From Alphaproteobacteria bacterium (GTDB lineage Bacteria > Pseudomonadota > Alphaproteobacteria > UBA6615): a stretch of 64,000 nt of DNA. Made by a program: the position numbers and the translations under genes. Below are positions 7,016-50,225 of the stretch, piece after piece. Every line of letters starts with the position of its first letter. Position 1 is the first letter of the stretch. The stretch spans positions 3,095 through 67,094 of the forward strand of contig CBDHEC010000008.1 of assembly GCA_965261975.1 (NCBI GenBank). Reading direction: 5' to 3'. A model generated the notes under the pieces. The model saw only the letters and a list, made by a program, of their open reading frames with translations, did no database searches and had not been told where the DNA came from.

Positions 7016-8269
7016 ATGAGTTCTGACAAGATCATCGCTTTCCTGGCGCAGATATTGGCGGCAGAGCCCACCGCCGACGCCTTCCCTACGCTGACGGACG
7101 GTGGCGCCGACCCGCGATACCCGGTCGCCGTCACGGATTGCCCGCGCCCCATCGGCACCTTCGATATCGAAGGCCGGACTATGATCTGCGGCCTGGTGAA
7201 CGTGCCGGAGAACCATGCCGAGCCCGACGGCCGCCGCATCGATCTCAGCTTCGTCGTGCTGAAGTCCCATTCCCTCTCGCCGGCGCCGGACCCGCTGGTT
7301 TATCTCCATGGCGGGCCGGGCTACGGCACGGTGGAGAACCTTCGAACGCTCGACGATCTCTTCGATCAATGGCGCCAGCGACGGGACATCGTCACCTTCG
7401 ATCAGCGGGCGGCGGGCCTTTCCGCCACGTCGGTCTCCTGTTTCGACACCACCTCCCGGAACGCCCTCGGCCTTTCGGGCCTCGATATGGGCGCGGTGGA
7501 GGCCGGTGCCGAGGGGCCCGGCGTCGCCGAGCCGAATGCGGTGGCCTACGCGCTGGTGGGTCCCTGCATCGAGGAGCTGGCGGCGCGGGGCGTCGACCTG
7601 CCGCGCTACAACACGACGGAGAACGCCCGCGACGTGCGCGCCGTCCTCTCCGCCCTCGGCTATCCCACCTACAACATCTACGGCATCTCCTACGGCACCA
7701 TCCTCGGGCTGGAGGTGATGCGGACAGCGCCGGAAGGCGTGCGGAGCGTGGTGCTGGACAGTGTCTGGCCGCCGGACAAGGCCTTCTACGACGAGCTCGC
7801 CGGCCCCCACGACGAGGCGGCGGCGGCCATCTTCGACCAATGCGCCGCCGATCCCGACTGCGCCGCCGCCTACCCGGATCTCCTGAACCGGTTCAACGCG
7901 TTGATGGATAAGCTGGCGGAAGAGCCGATCCCCGCCGGGCGGGTGACGCCGCCGATCTCCCCGACGACGGTCGTCGAGATCATCCAGAGCCGCAATTTCG
8001 ATGGCTCCTATCCGGGCCTCACCGGGCTCATCCCCCTGATGGTGCACCAGCTGGAGCGGGGCGATACCGACCTGGTGGATGCCTTTTTCCTCAGGAGCCT
8101 GCCGCCGCCGCCGGGCAGCCACGACGCCGCCATGGGGGCGATCGACTCGGGCCTCACCGACGACGAGACGGCGATGGCCCTCGCGGTGCTGCGCCTCGCC
8201 GAGCAACGGCGCGCGGGCGACGAGGCGACCTTGTACCAGACCATATGCGTGACGACAGGCGCACGATGA
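7016..8269 (+). CDS. Alpha/beta hydrolase, S33 family (tripeptidyl/prolyl aminopeptidase Tap-like); 3' end probably truncated at a rearrangement junction
   Basis: GISYGT nucleophile elbow and Tap-like overall similarity. The last ~14 codons (about 8228-8269) are antisense of an M16 peptidase N-terminus, so the native C-terminus, which normally carries the catalytic His, is apparently lost. Confidence 0.65.
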   Translation: MSSDKIIAFLAQILAAEPTADAFPTLTDGGADPRYPVAVTDCPRPIGTFDIEGRTMICGLVNVPENHAEPDGRRIDLSFVVLKSHSLSPAPDPLVYLHGGPGYGTVENLRTLDDLFDQWRQRRDIVTFDQRAAGLSATSVSCFDTTSRNALGLSGLDMGAVEAGAEGPGVAEPNAVAYALVGPCIEELAARGVDLPRYNTTENARDVRAVLSALGYPTYNIYGISYGTILGLEVMRTAPEGVRSVVLDSVWPPDKAFYDELAGPHDEAAAAIFDQCAADPDCAAAYPDLLNRFNALMDKLAEEPIPAGRVTPPISPTTVVEIIQSRNFDGSYPGLTGLIPLMVHQLERGDTDLVDAFFLRSLPPPPGSHDAAMGAIDSGLTDDETAMALAVLRLAEQRRAGDEATLYQTICVTTGAR

Positions 8270-21009: not shown

Positions 21010-21039
21010 CGCCTGCGCTTCTCAAGGCAAGTTGCGAAG

Positions 21040-21066
21040 CCCCTCCCCTCGCGGGGAGGGGTTTTT
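21040..21066 (+). terminator. Rho-independent terminator after the HMGL-like gene
   Basis: Stem CCCCTCCCC, loop tcgc, stem GGGGAGGGG, then TTTTT. Sits between convergent genes. Confidence 0.8.
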
Positions 21067-21071
21067 CGTTT

Positions 21072-24000
21072 CTAGTCGCCGAACGCCTCGTTGCCGAACG
21101 AAGGGTCAGGCGCCGATGCCGGGGCCGGCGCACGCTCTGCGGACGGCCCGCGACGCGCCTTGAACGACGCACTTCCTGCCGGAATCTTGAAATCGCCGCC
21201 CTCACCAATCAGGCTGAAGGGCGCCCAGAAGATCGGGTGGGCGTAGGAGAAGGCAGGCTTGCCCGTCTTCGGATCGACGAAACCAGGCCCATCGATCAAC
21301 GCGACCTGGGACTGGCGAAGGGCCTCGGCACGGGTGAGACCCGGCGCCGACTTCTGCCGCGCGAATACGTCCGTGGTCAGCAACCGTGCCGACGTCGTCT
21401 CGACCGGCCAGTTCGAGACCAGCAATGCGCGCGTGCCGGCATAGAAAAACGCACGGCCCAGCCCCGAGACCGCTTCCGCACCGGCGCCGGACGCCGTGCC
21501 GGTGTTGCAGGCCGACAGCACGACCCAGTCCGCGTTCATCTCGAGCTCGAAGATCTCGCCCATTTGCAGCAGGCCGTCGCCATTCTTGTCGCCGGCAATC
21601 TGCGGCGCCGTCAGCGCCAGCGCAGGCTCGACCAGGCCATCGAGGTCACCGGGCACGAGCCCGTGAGTTGCAAACGCCACCACCCGATACGCATCGAGCG
21701 CGGCATCACGCACCGACTGCTCATTCGCCTGCTTGCCGATGAACACATCGCGGGAAAGGTCCGCATCCAGTGCGCCGGCCATGGTGCGGATCTCATCGGC
21801 CGTATCCGGCAGCCGCGGCAGCTGCGAGAACTGGGCAGCATCGACCTCCTGGGTGCGCGGCAGAGAACGCAGGCGCACCGGGACGTTGCGCAGCTGCAGG
21901 CCACCCCGGCTGATGAGTTCCGCCTGGGCGCCGGGCACCGGTGTCTGGGCGAGTTGCGATTCGTCGAAGACGGGGTCGCCGAAGCCCAGGAACGCACGCT
22001 CCGCTTGAGTCGTGCCCGAGAGCGAACGCAACGCAACCAACGAGGCCACCGACGGCATCACCGTCACCGAATGGGTCCGTGTGAGCCAGGCCACGTCGCG
22101 ATAGCGGTCGAAGAGCTGGGCGCTGTCATCGGTGGCTGCGGCCGGCGCCGTCGGCAAAAGCGAGAAGGGAATCTGGCCCAAAGGGCCATCGGCCACCACA
22201 ATCAGATTGGGCGTTTCCTTCCAGCCCGACGCCACCGGCGCCAGCAGGTTCTGGTACAGGCGATGGGCGAGCCGGGTGTCGAAATCGTGGATATCGGCCA
22301 GTGTCGCCGCCTGCGGGTCCAGTGCGCGCCGGAGCTGCGTCGCGGCGGCGTCGAGGCGCACGCGTCCGATCTTCGAGACCTCGAAGCCGACATCGCCGGA
22401 TTTGCCGAAGGCCCAGACATAGGTTCGGTCGTCATCCACATAGGACACGAAGATGGACTCATCGTCGGCCAATGCGCCACGCACCTCCGCGAGTTCCGAG
22501 GGCGGCGGGTCGATCAGGCGAATATAGTCGGGAAACTGGTCCTCCAGCGCCTCACGCGCCCGGGCCCGTTTGCCACGCAGGTCGTCGATATCGTCGCGAA
22601 GCGCGCGTATGTCGCCGGAATCGCTCTGCCCCTCCGGCGCGGCCTGCAACGATGTAAGCAATCCGAAAAGCGCCCCAATCTGGCGAAGCAGGTCCTGCTC
22701 CTCGCGCACCAGCTTGGCGAGCTCGGGGTCGCGCGCGGCTGCCCGCGAGCTCGACTGCGCCACCGCACGCTGGACAGAACTACCGCGCGCCGCATCCGAG
22801 ATCCGGAAAGCTTCTGCCGCGATCTCCGCGCGCTCATCCGGCGCGGAGACATTGCCATAAACATGGGCGAGCACACCCATATAGCCCTCGAGTACGGCGC
22901 GCAGGCGAATGGCCTGGGCCGTGGCGGTCGCATCCTCCTCCTCGACGTTGCGCGAACTGGAGAGCAGGGTCGGCACCGCGTTGCGGAAGTCCGCAAGCGC
23001 CGCTTCATCTTCGCCCTTGAGATGCCGGCCGATCCCCACGTAACCGCGTGCCAGCGCGGTCTTCGCATGCTTGCCGCCAAGGCGCTGCAAACTCCGCTCC
23101 GCAAGGTCGCTTGCGATCGCAAGGTCAGCGTCCACCTCACCGACCTTGTAGAAGATGAGCGCGGAATCCACCGTCGACGCGATGCTGCGCCGGCGCAGCA
23201 GATTGTCGCCGGCAGTGAGCCGGTCAACATCGCGGACAATCTCGGCAGCCTCGTCCCATTTCTCCTGGCCGGCGAGCGCCCGCGCGAGCCCAATCCGAAT
23301 CCGCAGGAGGTGCGACGACGTATCCCGCGCGCCGATCTGCCTGAGGATATCCTCGGCCTCGCGGCCCAGGTCAGCTGCCTCCGCGAACCGACCTTGCGCA
23401 AACAGCGTGCGTCCCAATATGTCGATGGTATTCGCGGAGAGGGGCGTGAGTTTACCGTAGTCGCGAATGTTGCGGGCGACGGCCTCGCGCATCTGGCTTT
23501 CCGCCTCGATCTCCCGGCCGAGCGTCATCAGCAGCCGCGCGCGCACCACCTGGACGCTCGTCAGGCGGATGTCAAAGAGCACCTTCTGCTGGCCGGACCC
23601 AGGAAGCGCCACAAGAGCACGCTCGAGCTCCTCCATCGCCTCCACGATGACCTTTTCCGCATCCTCATGCTTGCCACGCGACGCCAGTATGCGCGCCTCG
23701 ACATCCAGAATCAGGTGGTTCGTGAAACTGCGAATATGCGTCGGAACCCTCTCGGGAAATCGTCGATAGATCCCCCGCATGTCCTTGACCAGGTCTTCGG
23801 CCCGTCCAAGCCGGCCCATGGAGAGCTGAGCGCGCGCCAATTGTGCCATCCCGCCAATCCGGCGCCCCGGACGCTCCGCGCGTTCATTGTCGACGCGTTT
23901 CTGGGATGCCTCGAGAGAGCCGCGCAGGTTGCCCGCACGCGCTTCTGCGGCGCCGAGGTCGCGGGCGATCCGCGCCACCGGGCCGCCATGACGTTCCGCC

Positions 24001-24302
24001 AGAGCGAGCGCCTGGCGCAGATCTTTCACGGACTGCTGAACTTTGCCGATCGCGCCTGCCGCGTTTCCGCGTTGCTGATAAAAGCGGGCGAGCGCCGGGC
24101 CCCGCATGCTTGCCGGCGGCTCCTTGTCCGCCGTCGCCCGGAGGTTACCCTGTTGCGCCATTGCCGACGGCGGTGCGATTGCCACGGCTGCCAGCAGGAA
24201 CACCAGCAACATTGGCACAAGCCAAAGAGCGGCCGCGCCCTTTCTCACTCCCGGTTTCGTCTCAAACAAGTTCGTCATCAGTTTTCCCCGACTGATAGAC
24301 AC
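21072..24302 (-). CDS. Secreted TPR-repeat protein with C-terminal CHAT (caspase-like) protease domain
   Basis: 1076 aa. N-terminal signal peptide and a long TPR-like helical region. C-terminal CHAT His/Cys dyad contexts VVAFATHG and VVLSACNTG. Confidence 0.8.
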   Translation of the reverse strand: MSISRGKLMTNLFETKPGVRKGAAALWLVPMLLVFLLAAVAIAPPSAMAQQGNLRATADKEPPASMRGPALARFYQQRGNAAGAIGKVQQSVKDLRQALALAERHGGPVARIARDLGAAEARAGNLRGSLEASQKRVDNERAERPGRRIGGMAQLARAQLSMGRLGRAEDLVKDMRGIYRRFPERVPTHIRSFTNHLILDVEARILASRGKHEDAEKVIVEAMEELERALVALPGSGQQKVLFDIRLTSVQVVRARLLMTLGREIEAESQMREAVARNIRDYGKLTPLSANTIDILGRTLFAQGRFAEAADLGREAEDILRQIGARDTSSHLLRIRIGLARALAGQEKWDEAAEIVRDVDRLTAGDNLLRRRSIASTVDSALIFYKVGEVDADLAIASDLAERSLQRLGGKHAKTALARGYVGIGRHLKGEDEAALADFRNAVPTLLSSSRNVEEEDATATAQAIRLRAVLEGYMGVLAHVYGNVSAPDERAEIAAEAFRISDAARGSSVQRAVAQSSSRAAARDPELAKLVREEQDLLRQIGALFGLLTSLQAAPEGQSDSGDIRALRDDIDDLRGKRARAREALEDQFPDYIRLIDPPPSELAEVRGALADDESIFVSYVDDDRTYVWAFGKSGDVGFEVSKIGRVRLDAAATQLRRALDPQAATLADIHDFDTRLAHRLYQNLLAPVASGWKETPNLIVVADGPLGQIPFSLLPTAPAAATDDSAQLFDRYRDVAWLTRTHSVTVMPSVASLVALRSLSGTTQAERAFLGFGDPVFDESQLAQTPVPGAQAELISRGGLQLRNVPVRLRSLPRTQEVDAAQFSQLPRLPDTADEIRTMAGALDADLSRDVFIGKQANEQSVRDAALDAYRVVAFATHGLVPGDLDGLVEPALALTAPQIAGDKNGDGLLQMGEIFELEMNADWVVLSACNTGTASGAGAEAVSGLGRAFFYAGTRALLVSNWPVETTSARLLTTDVFARQKSAPGLTRAEALRQSQVALIDGPGFVDPKTGKPAFSYAHPIFWAPFSLIGEGGDFKIPAGSASFKARRGPSAERAPAPASAPDPSFGNEAFGD

Positions 24303-24332: not shown

Positions 24333-26444
24333 CTATTTCTCATCCAAGGCGAAGACGCCATCCCAATCTTCCGGAGCATTCACCGCCAGCCGTCTGGACC
24401 GCGCAGCCATAGCCGCAGCCGCCGGATCGTCACCGGCGATCGTCTCCCACTGGCTCACCGCAGCCTCGAACCGGCCCTCAGTGTAATCCGCCTTTGCCCG
24501 CGCATACATCTCAAGCACCTCACCGGGCGTTCCGCCCACCGGGATGTGAAGCGTCACGGGCTCCGCGCGGCCGACGACCCTGACCGTATCGATCTCGCGC
24601 AACATCACCCCATCCGTGCCGCGAGCGCGGGTGTCGCCGGAGATCAGCAGGCCGGTTCCGTAGACCTTGTTCGCACCCTCCAGGCGCGCGGCGAGGTTCA
24701 CGGCGTCGCCCATGACCGTGTAGTTGAACCGGCGCGCCGAGCCGATGTTGCCGACCAGGATGCGACCCGTGTTGATCCCGATGCGCTGACGCAGCGCGAT
24801 CCCGTGAGCCGCCTCCAGGTCGCGGTTGAGTTCATCCAGGCGCTGCTGACACTCGACCGCCGCGGCGATCGCACTGTCGGCATGTCCCGGATCGTTATGC
24901 GGCGCGCCGAACACCGCGACGATGGCGTCGCCGATATATTTGTCGACGAAGCCGCCATGACGCTCGATCACATCGGTCATCGCCGACAGATATTCGTTCA
25001 GCACCCGCACCAGCTGTTCGGGCGACATTCCTTCTGACATCGCGGTGAAACTCGCGAGGTCGGAGAAGAAGACGGTCAGCTCCCGCGTCTCGCCCCCCAG
25101 CGCCGGCATCTCGCTGCGCTCGACCATCTGCTCGATCACGGACGGCGCAAGATAGAGGCCGAACATCTGGCGCAGCAGCCGCTTGTCCCGGTCTGCGACG
25201 GTGAATCGATATGCGCCCATCAGCGCGAAAACAATCGCGATCGCGATCGGCGGATCAAACAGCGGGAAGACGGTGCCGCCCTGGAACAACAGGACAGCCG
25301 TCGCCGTCCACAGCGCCGCCGCAGCAATTGCGATAATCCCCGCCAGCCAGGCACTGACGCCGATCGTCACGAGTGCGATCACGATCGCGAGGGCAAACGT
25401 CAGCCCGTATACCTGCCAGGGCGCAGCCGCCGAGAGCAGGTTGCCGCGAACCAGGTTGTTGACGGCGAATGCATGCATATAGACGCCGGGCACGCTGTCG
25501 CGGGCGACCGTAGCGTCGAGGACATCCGGCAGCCTCTCCAGCGCGCAGCGGCGCGAGAACGCGGCCCCGTCCGGCGCCGCCGCGAAACGCAGGGAAGAGA
25601 GCTTTCGGTCCTCGACGTCGAGCACCCCGCCCAGGAGAACGACCTTGCCGGCGAAGTGACGGGCGAAGAAATCGTTGTCCCCGGCTGCAGCGCAGGCTTG
25701 TAAATCGGCGAAGGAATAGGTCGGGATGCCGCGTTGGTCGTCATCGAAGTTGATAAGCAGGTTGTTCCCGCCCACCGTCGGCAACGGGACCCCGTCGCGC
25801 GTTGCGCGGCCGTCCGGATCGAAGGCAAGGCGGTCGCCGAGCGTGCGGGCCGCCAGCTCGAGTGCCAGCGAGGGTTCGAACGCACGCCCGTCACCCGTCC
25901 GCGCGAGACTGACGGGCACGCCGCGAACGATGCCGTCGGCATCGGAATAGAGGTTGGCGGCACGAATATTCGCCCCATGGCCGACGGCGAAACGCTGGCC
26001 CACATTCGGCAGGATCGGTTGAGTCGAGTGCTGCGCCTTGCTCTACACCATCTGCCCTGCACGACCGTGCCGACGAAGACTGAGAAGGAAATCCCGATCG
26101 AACCCGCGGATCTGCGAGGCCGCGCTCGTCGGCAGGATGACGTCCATCCCGATCACCGCTGCACCGCCGTCGATCACGGCATCGAAAACCTGCGCAATCT
26201 CGGGCGTCCACATCACCTTCGGCGTGGTGTCGAAGGGTTTGCGGCGGTAGGTCTCCTCATCGATGGCAATGACAACAGTCGGTGACTGCGCACGCTCATG
26301 TTGCGGGCCAAAGGCGGCCTGGCGCAGCCACACCAGGCTGTCGGAGGACAGACCGTCGAGCGTGTCAGACCATGGGCCCGCGACCGCGACGGTGGCGATC
26401 AGCGCCGCGATCACGGCGGCCATCAGGGCTTTTACGCGCGGCAA
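24333..26444 (-). pseudogene. CHASE2 sensor-domain class III adenylate/guanylate cyclase, interrupted by a single in-frame TAG (about 26043-26045)
   Basis: ORF 26043..26444 holds the N-terminal TM and CHASE2 start (VVIAIDEETYRRKPF..GAAVIGMDVIL). ORF 24333..26003 holds the rest of CHASE2, TM helices and the cyclase domain (FSDLASFT, YIGDAIVAVFGAP). Both are in the same frame, separated only by TAG plus 13 sense codons (SKAQHSTQPILPN). Confidence 0.8.
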
Positions 26445-27120: not shown

Positions 27121-27244
27121 GACGCTTCTCCCCGACTTCGGGCGGCGATTCGGCCGCGTATGGAACCAACAAGGCTCCATTTCTCGATTATCGAAGATAT
27201 CGTCTGGGGAGACAATCGGCAGTGACCACGGTCACAAAGTTGTT

Positions 27245-49037: not shown

Positions 49038-50225
49038 CTAGGCCGCCTCGGCGACGTCTCGCACGGCGTCGATGTCGGGGAAGATGACGTGGTTAGGATT
49101 GGGCAATTCGATCAATCCTTCATCGCGCAAAGCGGTGAAAGTACGGCTGACAGTCTCGATGGTCAGGCCGAGATAATCCGCGATGTCCGTGCGCGACATT
49201 GGTAAATCGATGCTCGCATCCCGGCCCGTCGGGTCCAGATGCTTGTGGCGGTAGAGCAGGAACGACAAAATCTTCTCGCGCGCGGACTTGCGACCGAGCA
49301 GCAGCATCTGCCCCTGCGCAGCGAGCCCATAGAGCACGCGCGAACCCATGATGATCTGTATCAGCGCCCCGTTCACAATTGCCAGCGTTCCTATGAACAC
49401 AATCGGCAGCGGCGATGCGCCGGTGGCGCGGGCATAGATATCGGCCAGGGGTGCGTCGCTCTGCCCAAGCGCTTCACCGGATGCACCCAACAACGCGACC
49501 AGCGACACAACAAAGTAGAGGAACGCGGTAATCAGCAGGGTGAGTATGATCGCCCGCGGCATCGTGCGGCGAACATCGCGCACTTCCTCCGCAACATTCA
49601 CCATGTCCTCAAAACCGATGAAGGCGAAGAATGCCAGAACGGTGCCGGAAGCCAGCAAGGCAAATGCCGGACGCCGCGTGTCGTCGAGGAGCGTGTCGAC
49701 CCAGGCACCGGTTTCCATCAGTCCATCGCGCGCCACCCAAACCACCAGAAGCAGGCCGGCGACCTCGACGGCCGTGATGATCGCGGCGACCATCACCGCC
49801 TCGCGGATTCCCCAGATCGCGATAAAAACCAGACCCGCCAACAAGATCGCCGTGAACACGGGCGCTGGCCAATCGAGCACGAGCCCCAGATAGCCGGTGA
49901 ATCCCTTGGTCAGCACAGCCGACGAGATAACACCCGACGCCGCGACCAGCAGCCCCACCACCACCGACAGGCGGGGCATGCGCAAGCCCTCGCGGACATA
50001 GAGCGCCTCACCCGCCGACCGCGGCATGCGCGTGCTGAGTTCGGCGAAACTCGCGGCGCTCAGCCCGGCGAGGCAGGCCGCAGCCAGAAAACTTAGTGGC
50101 GCGAAGGCGCCCGCGACCTCGATGACCGTGCCGGTCAGCACATAGATACCCGCCCCCACCGTGGTGCCGACGCCGTACATCGTCAGAAGCGGTAGCGTCA
50201 GCACCCGGTTGAGTTGCGGTGTCAT
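49038..50225 (-). CDS. Chimeric ORF: APC-family amino-acid permease N-terminal ~310 aa fused in frame to C-terminal HTH domain (~85 aa) of a Crp/Fnr-family regulator
   Basis: N-terminus has permease TM helices (GVGTTVGAGIYVLTG..., SRVLYGLAAQG). After the junction near 49297-49303 it reads LGRKSAREKILSFLL...MSRTDIADYLGLTIETVSRTFTALRDEGLIE, a typical Crp/Fnr HTH. Confidence 0.65.
   Translation of the reverse strand: MTPQLNRVLTLPLLTMYGVGTTVGAGIYVLTGTVIEVAGAFAPLSFLAAACLAGLSAASFAELSTRMPRSAGEALYVREGLRMPRLSVVVGLLVAASGVISSAVLTKGFTGYLGLVLDWPAPVFTAILLAGLVFIAIWGIREAVMVAAIITAVEVAGLLLVVWVARDGLMETGAWVDTLLDDTRRPAFALLASGTVLAFFAFIGFEDMVNVAEEVRDVRRTMPRAIILTLLITAFLYFVVSLVALLGASGEALGQSDAPLADIYARATGASPLPIVFIGTLAIVNGALIQIIMGSRVLYGLAAQGQMLLLGRKSAREKILSFLLYRHKHLDPTGRDASIDLPMSRTDIADYLGLTIETVSRTFTALRDEGLIELPNPNHVIFPDIDAVRDVAEAA

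Follow-up and report, generated by a model that had tools for sequence, protein, structure and literature searches.

In the window (the whole stretch of 64,000 nucleotides analysed here) one gene on the minus strand is open over 703 sense codons except for a single internal amber codon, and we consider it probable that this codon reflects a real and very recent Leu-to-amber change which inactivated the encoded sensor. The gene would then be a new pseudogene or, in the assembled population, an allele that has lost its function. Judged from its sequence, the locus is a predicted membrane receptor cyclase composed of an N-terminal TM helix, a periplasmic CHASE2 domain, three TM helices and a cytoplasmic class III adenylate/guanylate cyclase. 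The disruption of a single codon in a gene of known type is an ordinary event and involves no new gene arrangement.

The sequence-only reading had described two open reading frames that lie in the same frame and are parted by nothing but a TAG and 13 sense codons, and this description, coordinates included, is borne out by translation. Read on the minus strand, the codons around the stop are GGG CAG ATG GTG TAG AGC AAG GCG CAG CAC TCG ACT CAA CCG ATC CTG CCG AAT GTG GGC CAG, and the GTG that follows the SKAQHSTQPILPN spacer occupies 26003..26001 (-). When 26444..24333 is translated as one unit, it yields 703 sense codons with exactly one internal stop, and the ORFs 26444..26043 (133 aa plus stop) and 26003..24333 (556 aa plus stop) share one frame (Table 1). 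Since a random frame at 63.6% G+C would be expected to hold about 0.027 stops per codon, which amounts to about 19 over 703 codons against the one seen, the cyclase frame is not open by chance but reflects selection.

Table 1. Features of the interrupted cyclase gene and of its neighbours (positions are those of the window)
Feature	Position	Strand	Detail or basis
Whole CHASE2/class III nucleotidyl cyclase gene	24333..26444	-	703 sense codons, one internal TAG, terminal TAG; translation
N-terminal fragment, 133 codons: TM helix (residues 4-22) and first third of CHASE2	26046..26444	-	
In-frame amber TAG, codon 134, in place of an invariant Leu	26043..26045	-	
13 sense codons SKAQHSTQPILPN that carry on the CHASE2 homology, with the invariant Gln-His motif inside	26004..26042	-	
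Mechanical ORF from GTG 26003, 556 codons: rest of CHASE2, TM cluster, cyclase domain	24333..26003	-	
Upstream partner gene, 224-aa protein with predicted signal peptide; stop one base before the cyclase start codon	26446..27120	-	
Downstream TPR and CHAT (caspase-like) gene, 30 nt past the cyclase stop	21072..24302	-	Pfam CHAT E 3.6e-50 plus TPR families
Weak promoter-like site ahead of the three-gene cluster	27187..27215	-	consensus match only
Terminator-like hairpin just past the CHAT gene stop	21036..21065	+	consensus match only

The two ORFs are parts of one domain. With a cut-off of 26.3 bits, the Pfam CHASE2 profile (PF05226, 257 positions) matches the N fragment at 30.2 bits over positions 3-95 and the C fragment at 48.3 bits over positions 105-254, two pieces whose collinearity assigns both fragments to a single CHASE2 domain. 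As the spacer between them aligns without gaps, the earlier claim that CHASE2 homology runs continuously over the stop is upheld. The second ORF also holds a Guanylate_cyc domain (PF00211; 80.8 bits, cut-off 21.9) that finds the PDB entries 6fht (E 8e-41), 2w01 (E 4e-37) and 3r5g (E 5e-31), and the catalytic motifs FFSDLASFT, KYIGDAIV and VNLAARLE are kept, with the metal-binding Asp of FSD and of IGD and the Asn and Arg of NLAARLE, corresponding to the invariant columns D462, D506, N583 and R587 of a 43-sequence alignment. Hydropathy predicts one TM helix near the N-terminus (residues 4-22) and, further along the full protein, a cluster of TM segments at about 340-417, where the peaks fall at 353-417. 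The AlphaFold model of orthologue P0001 (84% identical, equal length; pLDDT 89.3) shows the same order of TM helix, alpha/beta CHASE2, TM helices and cyclase, with long helices (6-45 and 342-428) flanking the alpha/beta domain. One TM helix before CHASE2 and a TM cluster after it, in hydropathy and orthologue model alike, place the domain on the extracytoplasmic side. The stop itself falls within the strand formed by residues 132-137 of the P0001 model. Foldseek gave TM scores of 0.85-0.89 against 2w01 and 3r5g; here the query was the full-length model of the 84%-identical orthologue and cyclase-domain matches dominate, hence the comparison speaks for the cyclase fold and not for that of CHASE2.

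Relatives of the gene are almost without exception intact. Homologues that cover the full length (about 700 aa) share 74-85% identity with the window protein, and the best 120 database homologues are single proteins of 673-755 aa apart from two, namely the window's own 556-aa product (P0004, found on one 136-kb contig) and a 521-aa entry on a 3.6-kb contig. An uninterrupted frame over the whole gene is found at 84 of 85 related loci drawn from genome and metagenome collections. In the column of the TAG, Leu is present in all 25 homologues of a first alignment and in all 43 of a larger one, where it sits in the family motif V-L-[SGA]-K-x-Q-H, and relatives encode it by CTC or CTG and, in one case, by TTG. 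The sequence-only reading, which had expected a Gln (CAG) or Trp (TGG) codon at this position, was mistaken on this point. The spacer SKAQHSTQPILPN aligns gap-free with the orthologues' SKVQHSTQPILPN, invariant Gln138, His139 and Pro146 included, and 12 of its 13 residues are identical in orthologue P0002. Consistent with these comparisons, the window gene shares with ordinary single-lesion bacterial pseudogenes (those annotated 'internal stop') a lone nonsense codon where uninterrupted orthologues have sense, collinear same-frame homology on both sides of it and a distal part devoid of an independent start signal. It differs from them only in that the lesion, if real, is too recent for measurable secondary decay.

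The same comparisons leave little room for a genuine evolved two-gene arrangement, in which a small CHASE2 N-terminal protein would be followed by a shorter cyclase. Although the gene caller emitted the 556-aa product as a protein in its own right (P0004), we regard such an arrangement as very improbable because the gene is a single ORF at the 84 intact loci and in virtually all database homologues, the 13 codons between stop and GTG are conserved coding sequence and the GTG is not preceded by a Shine-Dalgarno sequence (see below). Nor is the split kept in relatives: among the related loci examined, none combines the same stop with a separate downstream start, the pattern that would have spoken for two genes. 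The sole other interrupted copy among the 85 loci (L041; DASXJB010000190.1, a Xanthobacteraceae MAG) has its stop elsewhere, an in-frame TAG at position 7498 that lies inside the cyclase domain (...DIIQ*QGGFVDKYIGD...). It resembles the window in being a single amber in an otherwise open frame of the same gene family, yet as it interrupts the cyclase domain rather than CHASE2 it must be an independent event and not a conserved feature. So to our minds, the earlier proposal that a recent nonsense mutation or a base-call error, rather than two genes, lies behind the two ORFs agrees well with what we see in relatives and with purifying selection on the rest of the gene.

How recent the lesion would have to be is indicated by the near-absence of other change. 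At columns invariant in 24 orthologues, the window gene deviates nowhere but at the stop itself, and among the ten closest sequences it carries 4 private changes, the others having 4-18. Measured against three relatives, dN/dS comes to 0.13 over the whole gene, with 0.09-0.12 in the N fragment and 0.13-0.15 in the C fragment, which makes the window indistinguishable from intact orthologues compared with one another (0.11-0.17). Both neighbouring genes are full length. Taken together, no excess of substitutions, a normal dN/dS and full-length neighbours imply that the disruption is either very recent or not real.

The latter option, that the TAG is a base-call, polishing or consensus error, or else a minority variant promoted to consensus, and that the organism has an intact 703-codon gene, has to be taken seriously, albeit we think it rather unlikely. 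Complete absence of secondary decay is equally expected of an artefact: the cyclase gene shows no other decay and both of its partner genes are intact. Moreover, the window sequence is known from one contig only, whose source seems to be an uncultured organism. Conspecific DNA, sought by a degenerate-pattern scan of the metagenome collection, was not recovered; the scan gave four contigs, of which the best is only 81% identical, and a genome scan gave as its best match a Rhodospirillaceae MAG with 79% protein and 75% DNA identity. With the nearest DNA at 81% and the exact product on one contig only, a consensus or base-call error would look identical to a true variant. The isolated amber in the Xanthobacteraceae copy also indicates that stops of this kind occur in about 1 of 85 such assemblies. 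Weighing against an error, some 20 further genes of the window match their profiles completely, with neither breaks nor frameshifts. This points to a low per-base error rate and to an assembly that is not error-prone for indels, which makes a real variant somewhat likelier than a random error. Substitution errors that survive consensus are in addition rare, and only a few percent of them make stops, while real pseudogenes with just one lesion are frequent among bacteria. The window has another gene-destroying lesion, a permease fused to a Crp/Fnr HTH (see below), which suggests genuine gene damage or, alternatively, assembly problems.

If the amber is real, as we favour, codon 134 for an invariant Leu in a core CHASE2 beta-strand would have become TAG, most simply by TTG -> TAG. 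As the ancestral Leu is invariant, TTG is the likely one-step precursor; this intermediate is assumed, the closest relatives having CTC or CTG. At a dS of about 0.75 to the nearest relatives, a synonymous change to TTG ahead of the nonsense change would be unremarkable. Translation would end after 133 residues and leave a membrane-anchored CHASE2 stub lacking the output domain, and in line with this the earlier suggestion that the gene, if the stop is real, yields a truncated periplasmic fragment with no cyclase output is plausible. The receptor's cyclase signalling would presumably be lost. As for the 556-codon downstream frame, it lacks both a ribosome-binding site and the signal-anchor helix needed for export of the rest of CHASE2, so a product of reinitiation would probably insert wrongly into the membrane and fail to signal. 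The mRNA left untranslated past the stop may, through polarity, also lower expression of the CHAT gene.

Alternatively, the stop could be real and some function kept, be it by near-cognate read-through of the amber, by termination-reinitiation at GTG 26003 or by a split sensor assembled from two fragments. The next in-frame start, the GTG, follows only 13 codons past the stop, a distance at which ribosomes can reinitiate, and both halves are under purifying selection relative to other family members, though this records mostly the history before the mutation. We nevertheless judge residual function to be improbable. Shine-Dalgarno pairing before GTG 26003 is absent (+0.3 kcal/mol versus -8.1 and -5.7 at the neighbouring starts), a consensus scan found no promoter-like site near this start of the distal ORF, and RNA folding over the 110 nt that follow the TAG is no stronger than in shuffled sequences (z = +0.51) and thus not unusual. 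In addition, the break interrupts a beta-strand of the CHASE2 core, with the invariant Gln-His following four residues later, the C fragment is devoid of the N-terminal signal-anchor helix, and no relative has a split arrangement. A related scenario sees the amber allele as real yet not simply dead, that is, as a tolerated or selected loss-of-function variant of the three-gene module in a natural population or, through low-level read-through or reinitiation, as an attenuated or split sensor; this, we think, has only a slim chance of being right.

There is hardly any prospect that the TAG is decoded as an amino acid, by pyrrolysine or a suppressor tRNA, in a designed read-through. What the window gene has in common with pyrrolysine-type UAG recoding is an in-frame UAG inside conserved coding sequence, and nothing else. 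Unlike there, TAG works as a terminator in the window: the cyclase gene itself ends in ...LDEK-TAG exactly where its orthologues end, and the genes for ileS, a 2-hydroxyacid dehydrogenase, Usp and an ABC-2 permease stop at TAG with complete profiles and are then followed by separate genes. The homologous residue is an invariant Leu and not a Pyl site, no structured element follows the TAG, and no suppressor tRNA was found within the window, whose only tRNA is Gly-CCC. A wider reassignment of TAG was considered and rejected, as five same-frame pairs of abutting ORFs that are parted by a stop (ileS and lspA, for example) turned out to be distinct genes with complete profiles. For this survey of other in-frame stops we relied on a stop-to-stop frame map and on Pfam searches of abutting and overlapping frames, a GC3 scan being too noisy at 63.6% G+C.

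On its own the stop is of little weight and is an annotation issue: the 556-aa database product (P0004) represents just one part of a 703-codon gene that has been disrupted, and it ought to be flagged as a pseudogene or possible sequence error. Of more interest than the stop, to our minds, is the setting of the gene, a partner/CHASE2-cyclase/TPR-CHAT module that is widely conserved in Alphaproteobacteria. The partner gene lies directly upstream of the cyclase at 79 of 86 loci, and at no fewer than 29 of the 86 a CHAT homologue is found in the vicinity of the cyclase, be it on either side of it or on the opposite strand. This conservation suggests that partner, CHASE2-cyclase and CHAT form one module. 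The partner protein has no Pfam or NCBIfam match, and those of its homologues that carry a source name are all called 'hypothetical protein'; a 'FecR-like' label was considered for the gene and dropped, since neither database stood behind it. Its AlphaFold model (pLDDT 85.6) consists of two beta-sandwich domains joined by a disordered linker and has no PDB match at E <= 0.001. In the partner family (about 225 aa) two cysteines, C69 and C100, are invariant. The partner may be regarded as a candidate co-sensor or ligand-presenting partner of CHASE2. The CHAT protein is 1076 aa long and starts with a hydrophobic N-terminal signal or anchor.

The characterised systems that come closest in kind are three CHASE2 cyclases of Sinorhizobium meliloti, CyaD1, CyaD2 and CyaK, where an external (plant) signal raises cAMP, which acts through the CRP-family regulator Clr in a pathway that also involves NsrA, an outer-membrane protein (PMC13001267). 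Like the window gene, they stand for receptor cyclases of Alphaproteobacteria that couple an extracytoplasmic CHASE2 domain to a class III cyclase, a likeness in kind. In contrast to CyaD1, CyaD2 and CyaK, the window gene is interrupted by an amber and has as its neighbours a 224-aa periplasmic protein and a TPR-CHAT protein, as opposed to NsrA. If the stop is real, the lineage would have just lost one receptor cyclase input.

Polar residues that are strictly invariant in the CHASE2 domain of 43 homologues are D62-E63, Q138-H139, C251 and D276/E278/D279/R280/K281 (numbering of the joined protein). That an alpha/beta fold with a conserved His and a conserved Cys is encoded by a gene adjoining one for a caspase-like CHAT protein is intriguing.

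Two further loci of the family deserve mention. At the contig end of a Rhodospirillaceae MAG (L003 ~8020..8131; JABJEK010000063.1, SI074_bin10), the cyclase frame ...WETISAQDPPAAMA runs directly into QQSGGG...DKEPPANMQGAGLARFYQ, a stretch that corresponds to the TPR-CHAT protein near its N-terminus. The two meet at a short shared P-x-A-M-A motif, and cyclase C-terminus, spacer and CHAT signal peptide are absent; behind it is either a deletion by microhomology or a collapse of the assembly at the contig end. A 286-kb contig labelled Leptospira interrogans strain LS0056 (L025; JBNOAI010000008.1) holds a cyclase homologue that is 47% identical, together with partner and CHAT genes; this alphaproteobacterial-type cyclase under a Leptospira label could stem from contamination or horizontal transfer.

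The second damaged gene in the window is a 395-aa ORF at 49038..50225 (-). It starts with the first ~316 residues of an APC-family amino-acid permease (Pfam profile positions 7-308 of 427), joined in frame near 49300 to the C-terminal ~80 residues of a regulator of the Crp/Fnr type (HTH_Crp_2 and Crp), without a cNMP-binding domain. As the best 150 representatives out of 1.8 billion proteins, which are ~405-415 aa long, match only residues 2-318 of its product, the permease-Crp/Fnr fusion looks unique, and it stems either from a deletion in which both genes were destroyed or from a chimeric join in the assembly.
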